Sequence record: KX130864
Direction: 5' to 3' (one strand)
DNA length: 64,000 nt
Origin: Shigella phage SHBML-50-1
Under the pieces are notes generated by a model, which saw only the letters and a program-made list of their open reading frames with translations, was not told where the DNA came from and made no database searches. This document shows, piece after piece, positions 1,206 through 45,488 of the stretch. A program made the translations under genes and the position numbers. Position 1 is the first letter of the stretch, and each line of letters starts with the position of its first letter.

Positions 1206-3185
1206 ATGACTTTATTATCTCCGGGCATTGAGCTCAAAGAAACTACGGTTCAAAGCACCGTGGTTAATAACTCTACTGGTACAGCAGCTTTGGCCGGTAA
1301 ATTCCAGTGGGGTCCTGCTTTTCAGATTAAACAGGTTACAAATGAAGTAGATTTAGTTAATACTTTTGGTCAACCAACCGCTGAAACTGCTGACTATTTT
1401 ATGTCTGCGATGAATTTCTTGCAGTACGGAAATGACTTACGAGTAGTTCGTGCTGTTGATAGAGATACCGCTAAAAACTCATCTCCGATTGCTGGTAATA
1501 TTGAATACACAATTTCTACCCCAGGTAGTAACTACGCGGTTGGAGATAAAATCACGGTCAAATATGTTTCAGATGATATTGAAACTGAAGGTAAAATTAC
1601 TGAAGTAGACGCAGATGGAAAAATTAAGAAAATTAATATTCCTACTGCAAAAATTATCGCTAAAGCGAAAGAAGTCGGTGAATATCCAGCACTAGGTTCT
1701 AACTGGACTGCAGAAATTTCTTCGTCTTCCTCTGGTTTAGCTGCAGTAATAACTCTTGGAAAAATTATTACTGATTCTGGTATTTTATTAGCTGAAATTG
1801 AAAATGCTGAAGCTGCTATGACAGCGGTTGACTTTCAAGCAAATCTCGAAAAATACGGAATTCCAGGAGTAGTAGCTCTTTATCCAGGCGAATTAGGCGA
1901 TAAAATTGAAATTGAAATCGTATCTAAAGCTGACTATGCAAAAGGAGCTTCTGCATTACTCCCAATTTATCCAGGTGGTGGTACTCGTGCATCTACTGCC
2001 AAGGCAGTGTTTGGATATGGACCGCAGACTGATTCACAGTACGCTATTATAGTTCGTCGCAATGATGCTATTGTTCAAAGCGTTGTTCTTTCAACTAAGC
2101 GTGGTGAAAAAGATATTTACGATAGTAACATTTATATCGATGACTTTTTCGCAAAAGGTGGTTCAGAATATATTTTTGCAACTGCACAAAACTGGCCAGA
2201 AGGCTTCTCTGGAATTTTAACTCTTTCTGGTGGATTATCATCAAATGCTGAAGTTACAGCAGGAGATTTGATGGAAGCTTGGGACTTCTTTGCTGACCGT
2301 GAATCCGTTGATGTTCAACTGTTTATTGCGGGTTCTTGTGCCGGTGAATCTTTAGAAACAGCATCTACTGTCCAAAAACACGTCGTTTCAATTGGGGATG
2401 CTCGCCAGGATTGCTTAGTATTGTGCTCACCACCGCGTGAAACTGTAGTTGGAATTCCTGTAACTCGCGCTGTTGACAACTTAGTCAACTGGAGAACCGC
2501 AACAGGTTCATACACTGATAATAACTTTAATATCAGTTCAACCTATGCAGCAATTGATGGTAACTACAAATATCAGTATGACAAATACAATGATGTCAAT
2601 CGCTGGGTTCCATTAGCAGCTGATATTGCCGGTTTATGTGCAAGAACCGATAACGTTTCTCAGACTTGGATGTCTCCAGCTGGTTATAATCGCGGCCAGA
2701 TTCTTAACGTTATTAAACTTGCTATTGAAACTCGCCAAGCTCAGCGCGACCGTTTATACCAAGAAGCTATCAACCCAGTGACTGGTACAGGTGGTGATGG
2801 TTACGTATTATATGGTGATAAAACAGCTACTTCTGTTCCTTCTCCATTTGATCGTATTAACGTTCGTCGTCTGTTTAATATGTTGAAAACGAATATCGGA
2901 CGTAGTTCAAAATATCGTTTGTTCGAATTAAACAATGCGTTTACTCGTTCATCATTCCGCACAGAAACTGCCCAATACTTACAGGGAATTAAAGCTCTCG
3001 GTGGAATTTATGAATATCGTGTAGTTTGCGATACAACAAATAACACTCCGTCAGTAATTGATAGAAATGAGTTTGTTGCAACATTCTACATCCAACCGGC
3101 GCGCAGTATAAATTATATTACTTTGAATTTCGTCGCAACTGCTACTGGTGCAGATTTCGATGAGTTAACTGGTCTTGCAGGTTAA
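1206..3185 (+). CDS. 18: contractile tail sheath protein gp18
   Basis: 659 aa ORF, T4 gp18-like sequence and size; late promoter box upstream; canonical position after gene 17. Confidence 0.95.
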   Translation: MTLLSPGIELKETTVQSTVVNNSTGTAALAGKFQWGPAFQIKQVTNEVDLVNTFGQPTAETADYFMSAMNFLQYGNDLRVVRAVDRDTAKNSSPIAGNIEYTISTPGSNYAVGDKITVKYVSDDIETEGKITEVDADGKIKKINIPTAKIIAKAKEVGEYPALGSNWTAEISSSSSGLAAVITLGKIITDSGILLAEIENAEAAMTAVDFQANLEKYGIPGVVALYPGELGDKIEIEIVSKADYAKGASALLPIYPGGGTRASTAKAVFGYGPQTDSQYAIIVRRNDAIVQSVVLSTKRGEKDIYDSNIYIDDFFAKGGSEYIFATAQNWPEGFSGILTLSGGLSSNAEVTAGDLMEAWDFFADRESVDVQLFIAGSCAGESLETASTVQKHVVSIGDARQDCLVLCSPPRETVVGIPVTRAVDNLVNWRTATGSYTDNNFNISSTYAAIDGNYKYQYDKYNDVNRWVPLAADIAGLCARTDNVSQTWMSPAGYNRGQILNVIKLAIETRQAQRDRLYQEAINPVTGTGGDGYVLYGDKTATSVPSPFDRINVRRLFNMLKTNIGRSSKYRLFELNNAFTRSSFRTETAQYLQGIKALGGIYEYRVVCDTTNNTPSVIDRNEFVATFYIQPARSINYITLNFVATATGADFDELTGLAG

Positions 3186-3190
3186 TTGAT

Positions 3191-3841
3191 ATGGGGCTTC
3201 GGCCCCTATTCTCGAGGAATCAAGTGATTATTTCTAAATTTATTAAAGTGAAAATTGTACCATCAAATTTTAAACATTATCAATCAAAGGGTTATAAATT
3301 AACACCTCTTGGAGCGGTTAAACATGGATTTAGGTATTATGAAATTGATGTTAAAGTTGAAGACATTAAAGGTAGTACCGCGTATGTAAAATGCCGTTGC
3401 GATAAATGTGGAATTGAATATAACCAACGCATTGGAAGAAACACTGATATTTGTCGTGATTGCCGTCATAAAGATAAAATGCGCAATAATTCATATGATT
3501 CCGCGAATAAAGGAAAAACAGTAGAATGTATGCATGGCGTAAATCATCCAAGATGGAACCCAAATAAATCTGAAATGCGTGAATATATTTCATTGGTATA
3601 TAAAGAAACTCGTAAGCATAAGAAAATTTGGTCAAAATGGCCAAATGCTGATAAAATAGGAGTGTGTGGTACAAAAGGCGCTTACCAACTTGATCATAAG
3701 GTATCTATCAAATACGGTTTTGATAATTTAATTCCTGCTAAAATAATTGGCGGTATTAATAATTTAGAAATAATCACTTGGGAATCTAACCGAGAAAAAT
3801 CAAAAAGAAATAGTGTAGATCTTTGGGATTTACTAGAATGA
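3191..3841 (+). CDS. putative freestanding HNH-family (H-N-N variant) endonuclease with N-terminal Cys4 cluster
   Basis: 216 aa ORF inserted between genes 18 and 19; CRCDKCG...CRDCRHKDK Cys cluster; C-terminal QLDHKVSIKYGF...GGINNLEIITWESNREKSKRN resembles the HNH beta-beta-alpha-metal core; AT-rich relative to flanks; alternative GTG start near 3224 possible. Confidence 0.5.
   Translation: MGLRPLFSRNQVIISKFIKVKIVPSNFKHYQSKGYKLTPLGAVKHGFRYYEIDVKVEDIKGSTAYVKCRCDKCGIEYNQRIGRNTDICRDCRHKDKMRNNSYDSANKGKTVECMHGVNHPRWNPNKSEMREYISLVYKETRKHKKIWSKWPNADKIGVCGTKGAYQLDHKVSIKYGFDNLIPAKIIGGINNLEIITWESNREKSKRNSVDLWDLLE
3193..3206 (+). terminator. GC-rich UUCG-tetraloop hairpin after gene 18 (overlaps the start codon of the inserted ORF)
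   Basis: GGGGC-TTCG-GCCCC. Confidence 0.5.
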
Positions 3842-3848
3842 TTCTAAA

Positions 3849-3866
3849 GGCCTGTTTCGGCAGGCC
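3849..3866 (+). terminator. hairpin after the HNH-like ORF
   Basis: GGCCTG-TTTCGG-CAGGCC. Confidence 0.45.
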
Positions 3867-3867
3867 A

Positions 3868-3875
3868 TATAAATA
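3868..3875 (+). promoter_or_regulatory. late promoter box TATAAATA (distal) upstream of gene 19
   Basis: Exact TATAAATA in the 18/19 spacer, just after hairpin 3849-3866. Confidence 0.55.
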
Positions 3876-3926
3876 CACTATATCCTTAATTCTTTAATTC
3901 TATATGCCCTAGGTTAAACATAGGGA

Positions 3927-3934
3927 TATAAATA
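3927..3934 (+). promoter_or_regulatory. late promoter box TATAAATA (proximal) upstream of gene 19
   Basis: Exact TATAAATA about 15 nt before the gene 19 ATG. Confidence 0.6.
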
Positions 3935-3948
3935 CTACAGAGGCTAAT

Positions 3949-4440
3949 ATGTTTGTAGATGATGTAACACGAGCGTTTGAATCTGGTGATTTTGCTCGAC
4001 CTAACTTATTCCAAGTAGAAATTTCTTATCTTGGACAAAATTTTACGTTTCAATGTAAAGCCACTGCTTTACCAGCTGGTATTGTAGAAAAAATTCCAGT
4101 CGGATTTATGAACCGTAAAATTAACGTAGCAGGCGATCGTACATTCGATGACTGGACTGTTACAGTAATGAACGATGAGGCACATGATGCTCGCCAGAAG
4201 TTTGTTGATTGGCAAAGCATTGCTGCTGGGCAAGGGAACGAAATTACTGGTGGAAAACCAGCAGAGTATAAAAAGAGCGCTGTTGTTCGCCAATATGCTC
4301 GTGATGCTAAAACTGTAACAAAAGAAGTCGAAATTAAAGGCCTGTGGCCTACTAACGTGGGTGAACTTCAATTAGATTGGGATTCAAACAATGAAATCCA
4401 AACCTTTGAAGTAACTCTTGCTCTCGATTATTGGGAATAA
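3949..4440 (+). CDS. 19: tail tube protein gp19
   Basis: 163 aa, T4 gp19-like sequence and size; two late promoter boxes upstream. Confidence 0.95.
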   Translation: MFVDDVTRAFESGDFARPNLFQVEISYLGQNFTFQCKATALPAGIVEKIPVGFMNRKINVAGDRTFDDWTVTVMNDEAHDARQKFVDWQSIAAGQGNEITGGKPAEYKKSAVVRQYARDAKTVTKEVEIKGLWPTNVGELQLDWDSNNEIQTFEVTLALDYWE

Positions 4441-4446
4441 AATGAA

Positions 4447-6097
<1,651 letters not shown>

Positions 6098-9827: not shown

Positions 9828-9840
9828 TCTTTGACGATTT

Positions 9841-9860
9841 AAGGGACCTTCGGGTCCCTT
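9841..9860 (+). terminator. intrinsic terminator after gene 23
   Basis: AAGGGACC-TTCG-GGTCCCTT followed by a T-rich tract. Confidence 0.7.
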
Positions 9861-9875
9861 TAGTTGTTTTTATGG

Positions 9876-9883
9876 TATAAATA
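9876..9883 (+). promoter_or_regulatory. late promoter box upstream of gene 24
   Basis: Exact TATAAATA between the gene 23 terminator and the gene 24 start. Confidence 0.6.
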
Positions 9884-9910
9884 AATCATATAAACCAAAA
9901 GGAAAGCGCA

Positions 9911-14652: not shown

Positions 14653-14681
14653 TAGATATATTTATTACATGGTATTTAGAC

Positions 14682-16193
14682 ATGACTGACATTAAAGTAC
14701 ATTTTTATGATTTTAGTCACGTGAGAATTGATTGTGAAGAAAGTACATTTCATGAACTCCGTGATTTCTTTAGCTTTGAAGCTGATGGATATCGTTTTAA
14801 TCCGAAATACAAATATGGTCACTGGGATGGACGAATCCGTCTTTTAGATTATAATCGCCTTCTTCCATTCGGCTTGGTCGGGCAAATTAAAAAGTTCTGC
14901 GATAACTTTGGCTATAAATCCTGGATTGACCCACAGATTAACGAAAAAGAAGAATTATCAAGAAAAGATTTTGATGAATGGCTTTCTAAATTAGAAATCT
15001 ATTCAGGAAATAAAAGAATTGAACCACACTGGTATCAAAAAGATGCAGTGTTCGAAGGATTAGTTAATCGTCGTAGAATTCTTAATCTTCCAACATCCGC
15101 AGGTAAATCTTTAATTCAAGCTTTGCTTGCTCGGTATTATTTGGAAAATTATGAAGGTAAAATTCTTATCATTGTTCCAACAACTGCTCTGACAACTCAG
15201 ATGGCTGATGACTTTGTTGACTATCGTTTATTCAGTCATGCAATGATAAAGAAAATCGGCGGTGGAGCATCAAAAGATGATAAATATAAAAATGATGCAC
15301 CAGTCGTTGTTGGTACATGGCAAACTGTAGTAAAACAACCGAAAGAATGGTTCTCACAGTTTGGAATGATGATGAATGATGAATGCCATCTTGCTACAGG
15401 AAAAAGTATTTCATCTATCATATCAGGTTTAAATAACTGTATGTTTAAATTTGGTCTATCAGGTTCATTACGTGATGGCAAAGCCAATATCATGCAGTAT
15501 GTTGGAATGTTTGGTGAAATATTTAAGCCAGTAACGACTTCTAAGTTAATGGAAGATGGACAAGTAACTGAGCTAAAAATTAATAGTATTTTTCTTCGCT
15601 ATCCCGATGAGTTCACTACTAAATTAAAGGGAAAAACTTATCAAGAAGAAATAAAAATTATTACTGGGCTTAGTAAAAGAAATAAATGGATCGCTAAATT
15701 AGCTATTAAGCTTGCGCAAAAAGATGAAAACGCTTTTGTCATGTTTAAACATGTATCACATGGTAAAGCTATTTTCGATTTAATTAAAAATGAATACGAT
15801 AAAGTTTATTACGTATCAGGGGAAGTTGATACCGAAACCCGCAATATAATGAAAACCTTAGCTGAAAATGGTAAAGGAATAATTATAGTAGCTAGTTATG
15901 GTGTATTTTCTACTGGTATTTCAGTTAAAAATCTGCATCACGTTGTTTTAGCGCACGGTGTTAAATCAAAAATCATTGTATTACAAACAATCGGTCGTGT
16001 ATTACGTAAGCATGGTTCTAAGACAATAGCAACAGTCTGGGACCTCATAGATGATTGTGGCGTTAAGCCAAAATCTGCTAATACGAAAAAGAAATATGTT
16101 CATTTGAACTATCTTTTAAAACACGGCATTGATCGTATTCAGCGCTACGCAGATGAAAAATTTAATTACGTAATGAAAACAGTTAATTTATAA
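14682..16193 (+). CDS. uvsW: UvsW RNA-DNA and DNA-DNA helicase (SF2)
   Basis: 503 aa; Walker A LPTSAGKS and DECH box (NDECHLA); T4 UvsW-like sequence. Confidence 0.95.
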   Translation: MTDIKVHFYDFSHVRIDCEESTFHELRDFFSFEADGYRFNPKYKYGHWDGRIRLLDYNRLLPFGLVGQIKKFCDNFGYKSWIDPQINEKEELSRKDFDEWLSKLEIYSGNKRIEPHWYQKDAVFEGLVNRRRILNLPTSAGKSLIQALLARYYLENYEGKILIIVPTTALTTQMADDFVDYRLFSHAMIKKIGGGASKDDKYKNDAPVVVGTWQTVVKQPKEWFSQFGMMMNDECHLATGKSISSIISGLNNCMFKFGLSGSLRDGKANIMQYVGMFGEIFKPVTTSKLMEDGQVTELKINSIFLRYPDEFTTKLKGKTYQEEIKIITGLSKRNKWIAKLAIKLAQKDENAFVMFKHVSHGKAIFDLIKNEYDKVYYVSGEVDTETRNIMKTLAENGKGIIIVASYGVFSTGISVKNLHHVVLAHGVKSKIIVLQTIGRVLRKHGSKTIATVWDLIDDCGVKPKSANTKKKYVHLNYLLKHGIDRIQRYADEKFNYVMKTVNL

Positions 16194-25098: not shown

Positions 25099-27156
25099 CT
25101 ACATCTTGAACTTTTTAGACATTCCGTTGATGTTAACCAAAGAAGCCAAGATTTGAGAAACTTCGTTTTCCTCTTCTTTTGATTCTTCTACGAGGAATTG
25201 ATTAAACCCAGCCATTGGACGAACTTCGCCAGTTTCCATTAGATGATCGCCATCATATACCGATTCTTCTAATTGTTCAGAAGGAGGAACGATTGTGCCT
25301 TCGATTAGATACTTGTTATAAGCAGTTTCTTTCATAAAGTAAGTACTTACTTTATTAATCTTCAGTAAAATTCCACGTGGTAGAATAACTTCAGCTTCTG
25401 ATGGAAATCCTGATAAATGACCTGGAACGATAACTTTGATTCGCTCAGCTCCTTTAATTACCATACCCACGCTAGTTTCAGCATCTTCATTAGCATATGT
25501 AGAATGACTACCCATATGCATCAAATCTTCTGCATCAATGGAACCTTCTCCTTCACCAGAAAATACTGCGCCGGAATCATCTAGAGCCATATAGTTTTTA
25601 CCATGCTCACCGAAGATATTTGGTTTAAGCGATGTTGATACGAAGTTCTTGAAATAGAACATTTTATTTTCAATGTTATGACGCAAAGTTTTAAAGGTAA
25701 CTTCTTGCCCACGATAAAGAGTAGTTCCTGGAGGAAGAACTGAACCTTTAGCAAATGCAGAATCCAACGTCTCGATGTGTTTAATAGCTCGTTCCATATA
25801 TTCTTCACGGGTAGAATCAGGTTTACCTAAAAGGAACGAGTTCATTTCAACATATGAATCTGCACAATAATCTTCAATTACATCAGACTCAGCCTGAGTT
25901 AATCCTTTTGGAGTTACTTCAGTGCTTGCGTATTCATATGCCTGAGCGGCAGATTCATTAATCAATTTATAAATGCCATTCATGACAAATTGAATAATAG
26001 CTGTCTTTTCATCTGGTGTAGCTTTAGAACCTTTAACTAAATCATTGATAATTTTCTTAATAACATCAAAGCTATTAGAAATATTAATGTCAGCAAGATC
26101 GCTTAAAATTTTATCAGTTTTATAATCAAAGAATTCTTTATTCTTTAAATATTCTTGAGAACCTTGATATGTTATATCGCTCTGCAACTTGATAGATGGA
26201 TCACGTAAACGTGCATGGGCTAATGCAATATGATTTCGGAAACTTTCTAGTTCATAATCGTTAGATTTAAAACGAGAAGCACTTCTCATACCACCGATAG
26301 CTCCTTTGCTGAAGTTGGAACCAATCTGAATAACGCCAGAGTTCATCGGACCTTCTGCTTTATATACAGGAACTTTAGATTCAAACTCTTGATATTTCTT
26401 GGCAGCGAAGCTATCACCCTGAAGTGAAGCATCGACAGTAGAATATTGAGCTTGTGCTGCTAATCGACGACTAATTTTAGTTTTCTGAATAACAGCTTGA
26501 TCCGTGCGCTTATCATTTTCTAAGGCAATAGAAGCAGCAACAGCAACAGCTTTAGGAACAGCATTACCTGTTTTAACATCCACATAAACATCACCAACCT
26601 TTGATTCAACTTTTGTGAATAACTCAGTTGAAATAGGAGGTACACCTGGAATGTCTTCTAAATTGGCATTTTTACGGTAAACCATAATATATGCATACTT
26701 TTTATCATAATCCCAGATTTCCTTTAAAAGAACATATCGACCTGCTCCTTTAGTACGTACTAAACGGTCAGCAATAACTTGCATTTGACGAGCTGCGCCA
26801 TTTGTTTTACTTTTTAGTACGCGGAATAAGCATGCATCAATTTTATACTGTTTCATTGTTTGAAGAGCAGTATCAAAAACGGCATTAATGACACCAATTG
26901 GATTTCCACCTAAGTTTTTAAGTTTAACTAATGATAGTTTCTCATTGACACCTATCATTACGATATGCATCATTTTATCGCCTGGCTTAACGTTTTTATT
27001 TGTATCACCACCAGAGGTGTATGTACAAAATCTAAATCCAGGAAGCACACTTTCTTCGCCGGCTTGAATAGCAAAAATTTGAGGTATTTTATGCTTAGGA
27101 TTTAAGTTAACAACCGGCGCCGAAGCGCCGTCAAATAATTCTGTAATAAGTTCCAT
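25099..27156 (-). CDS. Alt-like mono-ADP-ribosyltransferase paralog (downstream copy)
   Basis: 685 aa; N-terminal ~230 aa and C-terminal ~200 aa similar to the adjacent Alt; R (YRGQ), S-T-S (FVSTSL) and E (SEAEVILPRG) ART motifs present; central region divergent. Confidence 0.85.
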   Translation of the reverse strand: MELITELFDGASAPVVNLNPKHKIPQIFAIQAGEESVLPGFRFCTYTSGGDTNKNVKPGDKMMHIVMIGVNEKLSLVKLKNLGGNPIGVINAVFDTALQTMKQYKIDACLFRVLKSKTNGAARQMQVIADRLVRTKGAGRYVLLKEIWDYDKKYAYIMVYRKNANLEDIPGVPPISTELFTKVESKVGDVYVDVKTGNAVPKAVAVAASIALENDKRTDQAVIQKTKISRRLAAQAQYSTVDASLQGDSFAAKKYQEFESKVPVYKAEGPMNSGVIQIGSNFSKGAIGGMRSASRFKSNDYELESFRNHIALAHARLRDPSIKLQSDITYQGSQEYLKNKEFFDYKTDKILSDLADINISNSFDVIKKIINDLVKGSKATPDEKTAIIQFVMNGIYKLINESAAQAYEYASTEVTPKGLTQAESDVIEDYCADSYVEMNSFLLGKPDSTREEYMERAIKHIETLDSAFAKGSVLPPGTTLYRGQEVTFKTLRHNIENKMFYFKNFVSTSLKPNIFGEHGKNYMALDDSGAVFSGEGEGSIDAEDLMHMGSHSTYANEDAETSVGMVIKGAERIKVIVPGHLSGFPSEAEVILPRGILLKINKVSTYFMKETAYNKYLIEGTIVPPSEQLEESVYDGDHLMETGEVRPMAGFNQFLVEESKEEENEVSQILASLVNINGMSKKFKM

Positions 27157-27159
27157 GAT

Positions 27160-29253
27160 TTATCCTTGAACGAACTTGTAAGGCATGTTTGTAATATCTA
27201 TGCAAGACGCAATAATTCCAAGAGATGATTCTACTTTTTGTTTAACATTTGATGAAACAAATGATGCAAAGTCAACTCTGTCTTCTATTTCAATATCACC
27301 TGTCATTGCAACTACTTCGCCGGTTTCCATTAGACGGTCACCGTCATAAATTACTGATTCGGTGAGTTCTTCCGTAGTCATAACTTCAGCTTGAATGAGT
27401 TTTGTATTATTAGATGTTGTTCCGTCATTATTAGAAGCATCAGTTATTTTATTAACTTTGACCATCAATCCGCGTGGTAGAATAACTTCAGCTTCTGTTG
27501 CTATTCCGAGACTTCCTGGATATACAACATTAACTTTATGAGCTCCATCAATTGCCCATCCTATTTGAACTTTAACGTATTCAGGATTTTCTTTATACGC
27601 TCTTATTTCGTTTGGATTAATAGTTATTCCTTCTTCATTTTTATCAACTGTCAATTCATTACGAGCTTCTGGTTCTAAAAGACCAATACCAGCATGCGTA
27701 ATTCCAAAACGTCCAAAAATGATAGGAGTTAAAGAAGTAGATACAAAATTTCTGAAATAGAATACTTTATTTTTAACTAATGCTTCGTATATAGGAGCAG
27801 TCATGCTTTGAGCACGATAAACTGTAATGCCTTCTGGTATACGGTCACCGTTTTCAAAAGCTGAATCTAAGTTATTTATAGCAGATTCAATTTCTTTTTC
27901 ACTCATTACATCATATCGTTCTGGATTGTAACGACCCAAAAGAAGATTATTGATGTCAGTATATCCTGATCCACAATACTCTCTAATGCCGCGCTTTTGT
28001 GATGGAGTATATTTAGAACCATCACGGGCAATAGTAATATCAATCATTGGACCTGCACCAATTCCAGAAAAACTATAAATCATTCTTTTGAGGAATTTAG
28101 TTTTTGCTGCGTTCCAGGAATTTTTAGTCATTTCTTCCCAGACTTCATCTGGCTGCCCTTTACGAGTTTTATTATGTTTATCAAGCCAATTATCTTTATA
28201 TTCTTCAAAGAGTTGATTAACAGCTGCTGCGTATTTCTCTAAACATTTTATTGAAGTAGTTGGTTCATTTTTAATCGCATTAAGAATTACATCTTTAATT
28301 TTTTCTGAAACTTCATCAACCTCACTTTTTGAAAAGAATTTATAGTCATAGTGAAGTTCATCTGCAGTTCCTTCGGCAATAATTTTTGCTGCCTTAGTTT
28401 TAGAAGCTAATGAATTAATTCCAAGCTTCATTTCTTCTGCTTCGGGAATTAAAGGAGCGGTAGCAGGTTTATTAAAATTAGCTGCTGTAGATTCATACTT
28501 CTGGAATAATTCACTTTCAAATCTAGAAGATTCCAATGATTGACTTTGCGCAATTGCTCTACGGGAAATTTTAACTTTAACGATTACAGCTTGGTCAGAA
28601 CGTTTATCATTTTCTTGTGCAATAGATGCTGCAATTGCCTCATTTTTAGTTACTTGAGCTCCAGTATCTTTATTGATATAAACATCACCAACCTTCGATT
28701 CAACTTTAGTAAAGAGCTCGGTACTAATTTCAGGAACTCCTGGAATGTCTTCTAATGATACGTTTTTGCGATGTATAAGAATATATGCATACTTTTTATC
28801 GTAATCCCAGAGTTCCTTAAGAAGGACGTATCTGCCACCTGAACGACTACGGATAAGTCTATCAGCAATAACTTGAATTTGTCGAGCTTGGCCAGCAGTT
28901 TTAGACTTAAGAATACGAAGCATACAAGCATCAATTTTATATTGACGCATTGTTTGCATTGCAACAGTAAAAACTGAATTGATATAATTAATTGGGCTTG
29001 GACCAAGACCTTTTAATTTAGCAATTGAACCTTTAGCAGTTAATGTAAAAGGAACAATATGCATCATTTTATCGCCCATCTTTAAATCACGATTAGTATC
29101 ACCTCCAGATGTATAGGTACATAAACGAAAGCCTGGTTGTTCAATTGCATCATCAACATGAACTGAAAAAATTTGTGGTATTTTCTTCTTTGGATTTAAG
29201 TTTGTAATCGGAAGAGTAGTATCTTCGTCAAATAATTCTGTAATGAGTTCCAT
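27160..29253 (-). CDS. alt: Alt ADP-ribosyltransferase (packaged RNA polymerase-modifying enzyme)
   Basis: 697 aa from the second ATG (MELITELFDEDTTLP...); R (YRAQ), STS (FVSTSL), E (TEAEVILPRG) motifs; late promoter box upstream on the minus strand. Confidence 0.9.
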   Translation of the reverse strand: MELITELFDEDTTLPITNLNPKKKIPQIFSVHVDDAIEQPGFRLCTYTSGGDTNRDLKMGDKMMHIVPFTLTAKGSIAKLKGLGPSPINYINSVFTVAMQTMRQYKIDACMLRILKSKTAGQARQIQVIADRLIRSRSGGRYVLLKELWDYDKKYAYILIHRKNVSLEDIPGVPEISTELFTKVESKVGDVYINKDTGAQVTKNEAIAASIAQENDKRSDQAVIVKVKISRRAIAQSQSLESSRFESELFQKYESTAANFNKPATAPLIPEAEEMKLGINSLASKTKAAKIIAEGTADELHYDYKFFSKSEVDEVSEKIKDVILNAIKNEPTTSIKCLEKYAAAVNQLFEEYKDNWLDKHNKTRKGQPDEVWEEMTKNSWNAAKTKFLKRMIYSFSGIGAGPMIDITIARDGSKYTPSQKRGIREYCGSGYTDINNLLLGRYNPERYDVMSEKEIESAINNLDSAFENGDRIPEGITVYRAQSMTAPIYEALVKNKVFYFRNFVSTSLTPIIFGRFGITHAGIGLLEPEARNELTVDKNEEGITINPNEIRAYKENPEYVKVQIGWAIDGAHKVNVVYPGSLGIATEAEVILPRGLMVKVNKITDASNNDGTTSNNTKLIQAEVMTTEELTESVIYDGDRLMETGEVVAMTGDIEIEDRVDFASFVSSNVKQKVESSLGIIASCIDITNMPYKFVQG

Positions 29254-29276
29254 CATATCCTCTCTAGTGTTTATTC

Positions 29277-37553: not shown

Positions 37554-38943
<1,390 letters not shown>

Positions 38944-38947
<4 letters not shown>

Positions 38948-41993: not shown

Positions 41994-43172
41994 TTAAAAA
42001 TATTTTTTAAAACTCATCATAACTTTATCATCAACATCATTATCAATCTGTGCAACAAGGTAAGATGACAGTTCTACTTCTTGCGGCGCGGATTGAACAT
42101 TATCAGAATTAAGGTATTCACGAATCCAAGGATATGGATGTTTAACCGGAGCATCGGTAATTGGGCATGGAAGACCGCACTGTTTCATACGAGATACAGT
42201 TAAGTAATCAATAAAGCTCCACATGCTATTTGTATTTAATCCAGGAACATCGCCATCTTTAAATAAATGAACTGCCCAATCTTTTTCTTGGCGGTTAACT
42301 TCCATGAAAATATCAACTGCTTCTTGTTCACACTCTTTGGCAATTTTAACCCATTCATCACCATCAGTGCCAAGTTGAAGTTGACGAATAATATATTGTG
42401 TACCTTTAAGATGAAGCTGCTCATCACGTGCAATGAACTTCATAATCTTGGCATTACCTTCCATGATTTCCATATTCTTGTGGAAGTTAAAGGTACATGC
42501 AAAAGATACATAAAAACGAATAGCTTCCAATGCGTTGATTACGTGCAGGCAGAGGTAAAGAGAGCGCATTAGTTCACGTTTCCAATACATTTCATGCTCT
42601 ATGGCATCTTTAATATCATCTTCGTCTGCGTTAATTTCTTTTTGGTACTCAATATCAGCTTTAGCATTCTGCCAATATCTAGTTTTCTCAATAACATCAT
42701 CATAATAACGACCAATAGATTCAGCACGTTTCATGATAGCTTTATCTAATACAATCTCATCAAATACCTTTGACGGATCAGTATAAAGATTTCGCATAAT
42801 ATGAGTGTATGAACGACTGTGAATAGTTTCACTAAAAGTCCATGTAGCAACCCATGTATCAAGGCTTGGGTCTGAAATTAATGACATAAGTACAGCAGAC
42901 GGCGCACGACCCTGAATGCTATCTAGAAGTGATTGATACTTCAGGTTGTTAGTAAAAATATCTTGCTGATATTGAGGAAGCTTGTTAAATTGCGCAGCAT
43001 CCATCATTAAGTTTACTTCTTCAGGGCGCCAGAAAAATGACAACTGCTTTTCGGTTAAATCTTCAAAAACTTTATGACGTTGAATATCATAACGCGCAAT
43101 ACCAAGACCTGAACCAAAAAACATAGGTTCTTTTAAAACATCAACTGGATTTGTATTAAAAACTGTGCTCAT
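41994..43172 (-). CDS. nrdB: aerobic ribonucleotide reductase small subunit NrdB (uninterrupted)
   Basis: 392 aa continuous ORF with T4 NrdB-like sequence; no intron-like interruption. Confidence 0.95.
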   Translation of the reverse strand: MSTVFNTNPVDVLKEPMFFGSGLGIARYDIQRHKVFEDLTEKQLSFFWRPEEVNLMMDAAQFNKLPQYQQDIFTNNLKYQSLLDSIQGRAPSAVLMSLISDPSLDTWVATWTFSETIHSRSYTHIMRNLYTDPSKVFDEIVLDKAIMKRAESIGRYYDDVIEKTRYWQNAKADIEYQKEINADEDDIKDAIEHEMYWKRELMRSLYLCLHVINALEAIRFYVSFACTFNFHKNMEIMEGNAKIMKFIARDEQLHLKGTQYIIRQLQLGTDGDEWVKIAKECEQEAVDIFMEVNRQEKDWAVHLFKDGDVPGLNTNSMWSFIDYLTVSRMKQCGLPCPITDAPVKHPYPWIREYLNSDNVQSAPQEVELSSYLVAQIDNDVDDKVMMSFKKYF

Positions 43173-43223
43173 AAATTTTCCACTTAGTTAATAGATAGTG
43201 ACTCGTCCATGAGTCAAATTATA

Positions 43224-45488
43224 TCATAATTTACAGGATGAACAATCTTCAGCTTTTGGAGTTTCTATTTCATAATCATCAGTACCAGAACCATCACGGG
43301 TATTATGATAATAGAAATTTTTTCCGCCAAAATACCAAAAATACAAAAGGTCATCAATCATTATTGACATTGGAACCTTTCCTTTTGGAAAAATCTGTGG
43401 GTCATAATATGTATTCGCCGAAGCTGATTGACAAACCCATTTCAGCATAATAGCTACCTGCGTAAGATAAGGTTTATTACCTTTCTTAGCTAATTTCCAT
43501 GTATAATCATAGAGGTCTATGTTATGCTCAATATTGGGCACGACTTGATTAAAGGAGCCCTCTTTTGATTCTTTAACAGAGACTGGTCCACGTGGAGGCT
43601 CGATACCGTTTGTACTGTTAGAAACTTGGGAAGATGACTCACATGGCATAAGTGCTGATAATGTGCTATTACGGATGCCAAAGAGCTTAAGGTCTTCCCG
43701 CAGCGACGACCAGTCACAAACGTATTTTGGAGCTGCGATTTGGTCAATCTTTTTATTGTACCAGTCGATAGGTAATTCGCCTCGAGACCAACGAGTGTCT
43801 GAATAATATTCGCAAGGTCCTTTTTCTTTGGCGAGCTTAATGGATGCTTTAATGAGTCCATACTGTAATCTCTCAAATAGTTCATGTGTTAAATCGTTAG
43901 CATCTTCATAAGAAGCAAAGTTACTTGCCAGCCAAGCTGCATAGTTAGTAACACCTACACCAAGGTTTCGACGCTTTTTAGCTTTTTCTGCTTCAGGAAC
44001 TGGATATCCTTGGTAATCCAAAAGATTATCAAGAGCACGAACTTGAACTTCTGCCAATTCATTAATTTTATCTTGGTCTTGCCAGTCAAAATTATCTAGC
44101 ACAAATGCAGATAACGTGCACAATCCAATTTCAGCATCGGGGCTATTCACATCATTTGTTGGAATAGCAATTTCACAGCACAAGTTACTCTGACGAATAG
44201 GTGCCTTTTCACGAATAAATGGAGTATAGTTATTCGTATTATCAATGAACTGCACATAAATCCTTGCTGTTCCTGAGCGTTCAGTCATGAGCAATTCAAA
44301 TAGTTCACGGGCTTTAATGCGCTTTTTACGAATATTAGGGTCTTTTTCTGCTGCTTCGTATAATTCACGGAAACGGTCTTGGTCTTTAAAATAAGAATAA
44401 TAAAGCTCGCCACCCATTTCATGCGGACTGAACAAAGTAATGTAGTCGTTCTTTCCAAAACGTTCCATCATTAGATCATTCAGTTGAACACCATAATCCA
44501 TATGACGAATGCGGTTTTCTTCTACACCTTTGTTATTTTTCAAAACAAGAAGATTTTCAACTTCCAAATGCCAAATAGGATAATAAGCAGTAGCAGCGCC
44601 GCCACGAATTCCACCTTGTGAGCATGATTTAACAGCAGTCTGAAAATGTTTCCAAAAAGGAATAACACCAGTATGACGTACTTCACCCATGCCAATCTTA
44701 GAACCTTCGGCACGAATCATACCAACGTTAATACCAATTCCAGCGCGTTTAGAGATATATTCAACAATTGAAGCGGAAGCCTTATTGATAGACTTTAATG
44801 AATCACCTGCCTCAATAACAACACATGAACTAAACTGTCGAGTCGGAGTACGACAACCAGCCATAATAGGAGTTGGTAATGAAATCTGTCGAGTAGATAC
44901 TGCTTCATAAAAACGGATAACGTGTTTTAATCTATCAACAGGTTCATCTTGATGCAATGCCATTCCAATAGTCATAAATGCAAACTGTGGAGTTTCATAA
45001 ATTTGACCAGTGGTTTTATCTTTAACTAGATATTTTTCTTTTAATTGCATCGCCCCGGAATAAGTAAATTCCATATCCCGCTCGTGCTTAATTTTTGATT
45101 CTAAAAATGTAATTTCTTCTGCTGAATATTTTGACAATAATTCAGGGTCATATTTACCTGCATTTACACAATAAGAAATATGGTCAATAAATGAACGTGG
45201 TTCATATTGTCCGTAAACATGCTTACGAAGAGCGAACATTAAACAACGTGCAGCTACATATTGATAATCAGGCTCTTCAACCGAAATAGAATTCGCAGCA
45301 GCCTTAATGACAATAGTCTGAATATCGTCAGTTGTCATTCCATCACGGAGATAAGATTTAATATTTTCATATAATTCATAAGGATCTACTGATGTTCCTT
45401 CAGCTGCCCAAGATAAAACTTTAATAATTTTTTGTGGGTCAAAGCTCTGAGAAACACCACTACTTTTGATAACATTAATTAATTGCAT
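43224..45488 (-). CDS. nrdA: aerobic ribonucleotide reductase large subunit NrdA
   Basis: 754 aa; T4 NrdA size; class I RNR large subunit. Confidence 0.95.
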   Translation of the reverse strand: MQLINVIKSSGVSQSFDPQKIIKVLSWAAEGTSVDPYELYENIKSYLRDGMTTDDIQTIVIKAAANSISVEEPDYQYVAARCLMFALRKHVYGQYEPRSFIDHISYCVNAGKYDPELLSKYSAEEITFLESKIKHERDMEFTYSGAMQLKEKYLVKDKTTGQIYETPQFAFMTIGMALHQDEPVDRLKHVIRFYEAVSTRQISLPTPIMAGCRTPTRQFSSCVVIEAGDSLKSINKASASIVEYISKRAGIGINVGMIRAEGSKIGMGEVRHTGVIPFWKHFQTAVKSCSQGGIRGGAATAYYPIWHLEVENLLVLKNNKGVEENRIRHMDYGVQLNDLMMERFGKNDYITLFSPHEMGGELYYSYFKDQDRFRELYEAAEKDPNIRKKRIKARELFELLMTERSGTARIYVQFIDNTNNYTPFIREKAPIRQSNLCCEIAIPTNDVNSPDAEIGLCTLSAFVLDNFDWQDQDKINELAEVQVRALDNLLDYQGYPVPEAEKAKKRRNLGVGVTNYAAWLASNFASYEDANDLTHELFERLQYGLIKASIKLAKEKGPCEYYSDTRWSRGELPIDWYNKKIDQIAAPKYVCDWSSLREDLKLFGIRNSTLSALMPCESSSQVSNSTNGIEPPRGPVSVKESKEGSFNQVVPNIEHNIDLYDYTWKLAKKGNKPYLTQVAIMLKWVCQSASANTYYDPQIFPKGKVPMSIMIDDLLYFWYFGGKNFYYHNTRDGSGTDDYEIETPKAEDCSSCKL

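Follow-up and report, generated by a model that had tools for sequence, protein, structure and literature searches.

A putative free-standing homing endonuclease gene of a divergent HNH-like family between tail genes 18 and 19 of Shigella phage SHBML-50-1

Reviews of the mobile elements of phage T4 list seg, mob, hef and intron endonucleases, none of them located between tail sheath gene 18 and tail tube gene 19 (PMC2988022; PMC2993671, Table 5). Within the mob group, mobE has an RNA hairpin near its start (PMC2988022, PMC2790892). In phages of Campylobacter and in ViI-like phages, free-standing Hef-like genes are found beside the gene for the sheath or the tube (PMC3322345, PMC3296691), and Hef-type enzymes are Vsr-like (PMC3239194). 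Here we analyse a stretch of 64,000 nucleotides (nt) from Shigella phage SHBML-50-1 (sequence record KX130864; hereafter the window), in which an insert between genes 18 and 19 carries a single open reading frame (ORF) that we propose to be a homing endonuclease gene. The kind of element is already known; what is new is an unrecognised family, one site held across the T4 superfamily and a two-cassette architecture. In our literature searches, neither a published account of a T-even gene located between 18 and 19 nor any experimental work on this gene came up. In GenBank it is mostly annotated as hypothetical, and it appears as 'homing endonuclease' in ADUt and phi1_146043; other automated labels are 'type II restriction endonuclease' (Roth19) and 'putative head morphogenesis protein' (T6 RefSeq).

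Boundaries and expression signals of the insert

The window is a segment of a Tequatrovirus genome, its positions 2700–4450 being 98.9% identical to Escherichia phage 132 and 98.7–98.8% identical to HP3 and RB3. We aligned it with T4, T2 and T6 and extracted the matching junction from HY01, RB68 and KIT03. In T4 and T2, genes 18 and 19 are adjacent, separated by a spacer of 116 nt, as an earlier note made from the letters of this DNA had stated. All five empty genomes (T4, T2, HY01, RB68 and KIT03) read TAA-TACGGTGC-ATTCTAAAGGCC at the junction, and the window has 656 nt in place of the 8 nt of TACGGTGC (Table 1). The insert starts directly after the gene 18 stop codon TAA (3183–3185), and its flanks are ~97–99% identical among the compared genomes. 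From ATTCTAAAGG onward the window is identical to T4; this shared stretch takes in the hairpin at 3849–3866, the two late promoters and the beginning of gene 19 at 3949. The earlier note had drawn the insertion from 3186 to 3948, bracketed by two hairpins and followed by two late promoter boxes for gene 19. The insertion, both stable UUCG hairpins and both boxes are indeed present; however, the insert ends at 3841 and replaces 8 nt, and only the first hairpin came with it. The second hairpin and the promoters belong to the native 18–19 spacer and lie outside the element, since they are identical in T4.

The insert consists of its hairpin, a GAGG ribosome site and one ORF. As the earlier note had described, this frame of 651 nt and 216 amino acids (aa) runs from 3191 to 3841 on the plus strand and is AT-rich, the insert having 32.5% GC compared with 39.6% in genes 18 and 19. 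It is the sole copy within the window; a second was sought and not found. Neither a target-site duplication nor terminal repeats were detected at the insert ends, in the sequence or in the T4/T2/T6 alignment, which ruled out a transposon. Rfam returned no match in 2600–4100, and an intron or other known RNA was discarded on this basis.

Homologues from other genera open with MIISK or MIITK, for which the window equivalent is GTG 3224, six bases past GAGG. The annotation of phage 132 places start and ribosome site at the equivalent of GTG 3224, and the same arrangement is also found in S16, the Klebsiella phage and T6. GTG 3224 is thus the probable start as judged from these comparisons, and ATG 3191 is probably unused because the homologues' MIISK start and the phage 132 annotation both point to GTG 3224. 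The G of ATG 3191 is the first base of the stem of hairpin 3193–3206, and the earlier note had accordingly suggested that translation is gated by structure. This suggestion fails: the conserved GTG lies 18 nt beyond the hairpin, and the RNA over its ribosome site forms only weak pairings no better than those of shuffled sequence (z −0.26 and +0.59), so that a hairpin-sequestered start codon was ruled out. The hairpin occurs in both allele classes described below (class I and class II) and not in the empty genomes of the T4/T2/T6 alignment. A promoter belonging to the ORF was likewise excluded, as no promoter-like signal stood out: sigma-70-like matches were at shuffled expectation, and no TATAAATA late box was present inside or just upstream of the frame. 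The ORF is most likely expressed by read-through of late transcripts from gene 18.

Domain architecture and the putative H-N-N core

Residues are numbered in the 216-aa reading frame. In an alignment of 34 homologues, invariant or nearly invariant positions were C70, C73, C88 and C91; G116, R121 and W122; and D168, H169, N191, L192, N200 and K203. The four cysteines bear out the N-terminal Cys4 cluster of the earlier note and form a zinc ribbon; consistently, 12 of the 34 homologues gave weak matches to the treble-clef family DUF4379. G116, R121 and W122 belong to a linker motif, G-x-N-H-P-R-W, in a region of low predicted local distance difference test (pLDDT) scores. In one homologue (P0024), the linker motif GENHPRWNP is duplicated with a basic spacer between the copies (alignment A1, columns 150–190), suggesting that it is a repeatable module.

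The remaining conserved positions fall in the C-terminal DH...NNLE...WESNREK segment, which the earlier note took for an HNH core. A profile search of 1.84 billion representative proteins retrieved, at E ≤ 0.001, 5524 sequence clusters from metagenomes. Across a diverse set of 61 C-terminal domains drawn from them, 27–56% identical to the window domain, D168, H169, N191 and N200 were strictly invariant, as were L192 and K203, and N191 and N200 were spaced by 9 residues. The AlphaFold model of the window protein had a pLDDT of 83.7 over its full length, exceeding 90 in the C-terminal domain, and a model of this domain only reached a pLDDT of 86 and a predicted template modelling score of 0.75. 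The predicted elements are a strand at 165–169, a strand at 192–196 and a helix at 197–203. In the model, H169 is placed at the end of the first strand, N191 just before the second strand and N200 in the next helix, which is the layout of a beta-beta-alpha-metal site. HNH enzymes have a conserved His, the general base, at the end of strand 1, an Asn ahead of strand 2 and a His or Asn metal ligand in the helix that follows, and the window pattern agrees with this order.

Scans of the window protein against Pfam, NCBIfam and PADLOC identified no nuclease family, and Pfam gave no HNH match at E ≤ 10. The PHROG match was phrog_5104 (E 1.9e-90), annotated as function unknown. Searches of PDB sequences, whether queried with the protein or with a profile of its full length or of the domain, yielded only zinc-ribbon noise and spurious leucine-rich-repeat matches, the latter falling on an 'IG..NLq.l...N' stretch. 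When the 61 domains were compared with Pfam singly, 15 sub-threshold matches to the HNH clan were obtained (HNH_4 seven times, HNH five times, GH-E twice and HNH_5 once), with best E-values of 0.00097 for HNH and 0.0037 for HNH_4. The sole other family matched more than twice was DUF7034, of unknown function, with four members. Relatives of HK97 gp74 carrying PF01844 also served to build a canonical HNH profile; in the hhalign comparison with it, DH aligned over DH and NL over NW, with a P value of 0.0047 and a probability of just 7%.

Other results weigh against an HNH fold. None of the 61 family members reached the curated (gathering-score) HNH threshold, Foldseek searches of the PDB with the full and the domain models were empty, and hhalign against T4 MobE gave a probability of 0.1%. 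No HNH_3 or AP2 match was found in the window protein, nor any HNH_3 match among the homologues scanned. Together with the MobE value, this excluded the T4 Mob family, which is of the HNH_3 type. A Hef or Vsr-like EDxHD endonuclease was rejected as well, neither the Vsr-like fold nor the EDxHD motif having been found. Because the Pfam HNH search of the 216-aa protein was negative at curated thresholds, the assignment rests on weaker, converging evidence. The invariant D168, H169, N191, N200 and K203 and the modelled layout agree with the core proposed in the earlier note, although the curated HNH match is missing. We conclude that the C-terminal domain is very probably a divergent HNH domain of the H-N-N type, on evidence that is convergent and not decisive.

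In the metagenome relatives P0036, P0142, P0147, P0167 and P0181, the first ~115 positions of DUF7487 precede the catalytic domain and replace the zinc-ribbon domain. DUF7487 seems to be a DNA-binding module common to different nuclease types.

Allele classes, distribution and distant relatives

About 513 Tequatrovirus-like records match the end of gene 18, and 116 of them (~23%) extend into the insert. The window allele (class I) is carried by 46 records, including RB3, RB5–RB10, HP3 and pSs-1, and the T6 allele (class II) by 70; the other ~397, including T4 and T2, are empty. Between the window and T6, gp18 is 99.5% identical and gp19 100%, whereas the ORF product is just 56% identical, and closer alleles occur in more distant phages. 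In their DNA, the window and T6 alleles have the opening 68 nt of the insert (3186–3253) in common and are ~86% identical in the last 225 nt of the ORF; a class-specific cassette encoding the putatively DNA-binding N-terminal domain lies between them. The same class boundaries recur in a second lineage, the metagenome pair L022/L023, and the metagenome-lineage proteins P0010 and P0025 are both encoded between gp18 and gp19. In five lineage pairs, the catalytic domains are 89–99% identical and the N-terminal domains merely 22–28%, and same-class N-terminal domains are 50–64% identical across lineages. These pairwise identities indicate that two ancient versions of the presumed DNA-binding module coexist in several lineages, each time on a lineage-specific catalytic domain. 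The ratio of nonsynonymous to synonymous substitution rates (dN/dS) among close alleles is 0.08–0.18.

Variation near the insert also involves gene 18. In a ten-genome alignment, a patch within the last 85 nt of the gene, 48–84 nt upstream of the insert, occurs as three haplotypes (A, B and C) with 8–12 differences within ~37 nt, and its neighbours are near-invariant. One haplotype changes Thr to Gln, and TATAAATT, which nearly matches the late promoter box, is present in haplotype A. With a T6 query that covers the patch, every one of the 70 class II records showed at least 97% identity, which assigns them to haplotype C; class I has haplotype A in 42 of 46 records and haplotype B in 4. As far as the sequences go, this linkage between haplotype and insert class fits the trace expected from co-conversion during homing, and no sensitive allele was identified by linkage. 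Two candidate targets can be named: the empty junction GGTTAA-TACGGTGC-ATTCTAAAGG, which does not differ between the empty genomes examined and is disrupted by the insert, or the patch at 3101–3137.

By tblastn, the family was found in 242 phage records. We inspected T6, ADUt, sb3 and vB_SsoM_113 (Tequatrovirus), Salmonella phage S16 (Gelderlandvirus), Klebsiella phage phi1_146043, Acinetobacter phage AbTZA1 (Twarogvirinae), Bp7 and IME540 (Dhakavirus), Serratia phage X20 (Winklervirus), Aeromonas phage AS-zj (Emmerichvirinae) and Sinorhizobium phage phiM7 (Emdodecavirus). In all 12 of these T4-like phages, the gene directly follows the sheath gene and precedes the tube gene wherever the latter is annotated. 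The nine ORFs translated from non-class-I phages (T6, S16, phi1_146043, AbTZA1, Bp7, IME540, X20, AS-zj and phiM7) are all intact, and their identity to the window protein drops roughly in step with gp18 identity. The earlier note had named, as the contrary case, an ORF universally present here with a structural or assembly role. The gene is widespread at this position across genera, yet it is sporadic and no structural role is documented. Dhakavirus-like phages have an extra unannotated ORF of ~190 aa between tube gene 19 and portal gene 20 (Table 1), and the portal gene of Bp7 is annotated in two pieces.

Relatives were also found in other settings. In the Klebsiella jumbo phage phiKp_21, the catalytic domain ends a 323-aa ORF directly after nrdA (L013 2212–3183); this ORF has an unrelated N-terminal part and no Pfam match. 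In Campylobacter phage CJLB-13, the sheath gene is split, gp18 residues 222–515 and 517–642 matching by tblastn two ORFs that lie 1.6 kb apart. The 1.6-kb element between them (L015 2429–4064) contains an ORF bearing the family's catalytic domain (GYHLDH...NL...N) and a group I intron core, RF00028, at L015 3781–3999 (E 2.6e-10; 47 bits, the gathering score being 50). The intron site matches codon 516 of gene 18, at about nt 2751–2753 of the window and 435 nt upstream of the free-standing insert. The CJLB-13 nuclease frame is seemingly broken into two overlapping ORFs (L015 2546–3418 and 3372–3713). Immediately downstream, a 610-aa ORF on the opposite strand (L015 4519–6351) combines DUF7487 repeats with a Mom-family domain and an IEYDG..H motif.

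The canonical T4 endonuclease sites, which the earlier note had found apparently empty, are so: segD, segE, mobE and the nrdB intron with I-TevIII are all absent from the window. Short spacers stand in place of segD (between genes 23 and 24), segE (between inh and uvsW), the nrdB group I intron with I-TevIII, and mobE with nrdB.1. Elsewhere in the window, two full-length tandem alt-like ORFs of 685 and 698 aa occupy 25099–29256 on the minus strand, where T4 has one alt and the remnants alt.-1, alt.-2 and alt.-3; similarity to T4 is just 69–79% in this region. An extra 100-aa ORF at 38645–38947 (minus strand) lies between pseT and pseT.1 in a 295-nt segment found only in the window, without a T4 counterpart. 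The 32-kb entry MG010123.1 bears the name 'Staphylococcus phage SAJK-IND', matches this T4-like region at 98.4% identity and is probably mislabelled or contaminated.

Table 1 Coordinates of the insert, its flanks and other features (window positions unless another record is named).
Feature	Position	Strand	Basis
Gene 18 (tail sheath), left flank of insert	1206–3185	+	ORF list; 97% identical to T4 gene 18
Hypervariable, mostly synonymous gene 18 patch; candidate recognition or co-conversion region	3101–3137	+	Ten-genome alignment
656-nt insert where the empty allele has 8 nt (TACGGTGC)	3186–3841	+	Alignment with T4, T2 and T6; blastn against T4
C(UUCG)G hairpin of the insert, 7 nt past the gene 18 stop	3193–3206	+	RNA fold −10.8 kcal/mol, z −2.5
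GAGG Shine-Dalgarno for the GTG start	3214–3217	+	Sequence; ribosome-binding site annotation in phage 132
Putative nuclease ORF, 205 aa from GTG 3224 (longest frame 216 aa from ATG 3191)	3224–3841	+	
Class-specific cassette, N-terminal (putative DNA-binding) domain	3254–3617	+	blastn against T6: no DNA homology
Cys4 zinc ribbon C70, C73, C88, C91	3398–3463	+	Conservation in 34 homologues
Linker motif G-x-N-H-P-R-W, G116/R121/W122 invariant	3536–3556	+	34-homologue alignment; low pLDDT
Putative HNH (H-N-N) catalytic core D168 H169 ... N191 L192 ... N200 ..K203	3692–3799	+	
Native post-gene-18 UUCG hairpin of the T4 18–19 spacer	3849–3866	+	−12.8 kcal/mol, z −3.7; identical in T4, T2 and T6
Two native gene 19 late promoter boxes TATAAATA	3868–3875, 3927–3934	+	Identical in T4
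Gene 19 (tail tube), right flank	3949–4440	+	ORF list; protein 100% identical in T6
Spacers in place of T4 elements (segD, segE, nrdB intron, mobE + nrdB.1)	9839–9898; 14669–14687; 42497–42498; 43173–43227		
ORFs of ~190 aa between genes 19 and 20 in other phages	L008 (Bp7) 3670–4251; L014 (IME540) 4148–4729; L022 1908–2480; L023 1619–2191		

A homing reading, its alternatives and known systems

Judged from sequence comparison, the insert is rather probably a free-standing homing endonuclease gene of a divergent, uncurated HNH family. We favour this reading because the presence/absence polymorphism is exact (656 nt for 8 nt, with identical empty junctions in five of five genomes) and because the gene is sporadic among the ~513 records and hence dispensable. 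Group I introns and positions next to nrdA are classic homing-endonuclease settings, and the family has an intron-borne relative in the CJLB-13 sheath gene and another relative after nrdA in phiKp_21. Further supporting homing, allele relatedness disagrees with genome relatedness, the putative nuclease domain is joined to a swappable, presumably DNA-binding module, and the gene 18 haplotypes are linked to insert class as would result from co-conversion. The low GC content, the GTG start and weak expression signals, and the lack of duplication at the ends argue for the same reading. The earlier note's candidate, a site-specific homing or exclusion nuclease, thus fits the sporadic distribution and the exact boundaries and is plausible and better founded than before, although unproven.

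The insert boundaries, the conserved domains, the distribution and the intron-borne relative are observed here; nuclease activity, target and mobility we infer as follows. Having no promoter of its own, the gene would rely on late transcripts of gene 18 running on through the C(UUCG)G hairpin, and the GTG start, together with the upstream hairpin and read-through, would keep expression low. The N-terminal Cys4 zinc-ribbon domain, which comes in two interchangeable versions (class I in the window, class II in T6), would recognise DNA, and the flexible linker with its invariant HPRW motif would join it to the C-terminal domain. In the predicted active site, the general base would be H169 and the metal ligands D168 and N200, with N191 stabilising the fold. 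During mixed infection, the enzyme would nick or cut the DNA of a relative lacking the insert, probably at the uninterrupted 18/19 junction or close by, in the 3′ end of gene 18. The recombination-dependent repair of T4 would then copy the gene and flanking markers into the cut genome.

Several observations weigh against homing. All inspected copies are intact and under purifying selection, divergence across genera roughly follows that of gp18, and one position is held across three Straboviridae subfamilies and Emdodecavirus. Moreover, no haplotype is exclusive to carriers: class I occurs on A and B, and empty genomes on all three. Intactness, selection and position also fit an old, useful and vertically inherited accessory gene, encoding a nuclease or DNA-binding protein that benefits the phage, has been lost repeatedly and is not mobile; possible roles are attack on host or competitor DNA, counter-defence or late-infection DNA processing. 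Such a gene would account for the shared position in 12 of 12 T4-like phages (Tevenvirinae, Twarogvirinae, Emmerichvirinae and Emdodecavirus), the uniformly intact ORFs with their low dN/dS, and a protein identity that falls with that of gp18. However, ~77% of Tequatrovirus records, including T4 and T2, do without the gene, which is therefore dispensable; its alleles are 56% identical between flanking proteins that are 99.5–100% identical; a relative is intron-borne in a sheath gene; and PADLOC gave no match. We regard this explanation as the main rival and as rather unlikely. A speculative and rather unlikely idea is that the 18/19 junction of the T4 superfamily hosts one ancient nuclease element whose three states (empty, class I and class II) persist as a long-lived balanced contest. 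The cassettes may then differ in target specificity, each allele attacking the other or the empty site, for example via the haplotypes at 3101–3137. Such a contest may replace the usual cycle of invasion, decay and loss, and the same lineage may have moved into the Campylobacter sheath-gene group I intron.

The remaining explanations concern the protein itself. It could be a nuclease-dead remnant or a purely DNA-binding zinc-ribbon protein, with DH...N...N forming no working active site. The missing curated HNH matches and the negative Foldseek searches speak for this, and the C-terminal domain lacks the flanking Cys pairs that are canonical in many HNH domains; these pairs are, however, also missing from I-HmuI-type HNH enzymes. 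Invariance of D168, H169, N191 and N200 in 61 sequences only 27–56% identical is hard to explain without catalysis, and we consider the nuclease-dead explanation improbable. Another explanation is a packaging-associated HNH protein, like HK97 gp74 or the GVE2 HNH protein, that aids the terminase, whose large-subunit gene 17 is just upstream of gene 18. Such a helper is very improbable: T4 and most relatives package DNA without the gene, which lies between 18 and 19 and not adjacent to the terminase genes, and the protein matches the gp74 family weakly in hhalign and has an extra N-terminal zinc-ribbon domain.

If active, the homing endonuclease proposed here adds to the T-even system a family unrecognised by curated libraries, for which neither Pfam nor NCBIfam has a model. 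Where T4-like phages used in therapy or in the laboratory infect together, homing would affect how the tail sheath and tail tube genes are inherited. Retention of one site to such depth is unusual for homing elements, and the combination of a free-standing form beside a gene, an intron form inside it and two swappable cassettes offers a natural system for target change and intron entry. Experiments are easy with standard strains, T2 and T4 being empty, RB3 carrying class I and T6 class II.

Compared with known systems, the gene resembles MobA–E, especially MobE at nrdA/nrdB, in being small, placed in a spacer between conserved essential genes and sporadic among close relatives. Both are predicted HNH nucleases, and both are poorly expressed, as far as this can be inferred for the window gene. 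Unlike Mob proteins, with which it has no detectable sequence relationship, the window protein has an N-terminal module of the zinc-ribbon type, and unlike mob genes as described, its gene keeps one genomic site across subfamilies. Hef-like genes share its free-standing position next to sheath or tube genes, and some relatives of the window protein have a DUF7487 N-terminal module in common with a Hef-like neighbour gene; being Vsr-like, however, Hef has a different fold. The structures from Geobacter metallireducens (4h9d) and Geobacillus phage GVE2 (5h0o) and the HK97 gp74 family are 10–14% identical in sequence to the window protein. Proteins of this type consist of a single domain, with Cys or His zinc sites surrounding the core, and work together with the terminase, whereas in the window protein a zinc-ribbon domain is added and the two strands are joined by a longer loop. 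By motif pattern, the window protein would resemble I-HmuI and I-TevIII in design, which combine DNA-binding modules with a single beta-beta-alpha-metal site built from Asp-His, Asn and Asn. These two enzymes are intron-encoded whereas the window gene is free-standing, and its family has an intron-encoded relative of its own in the sheath gene of a Campylobacter phage.

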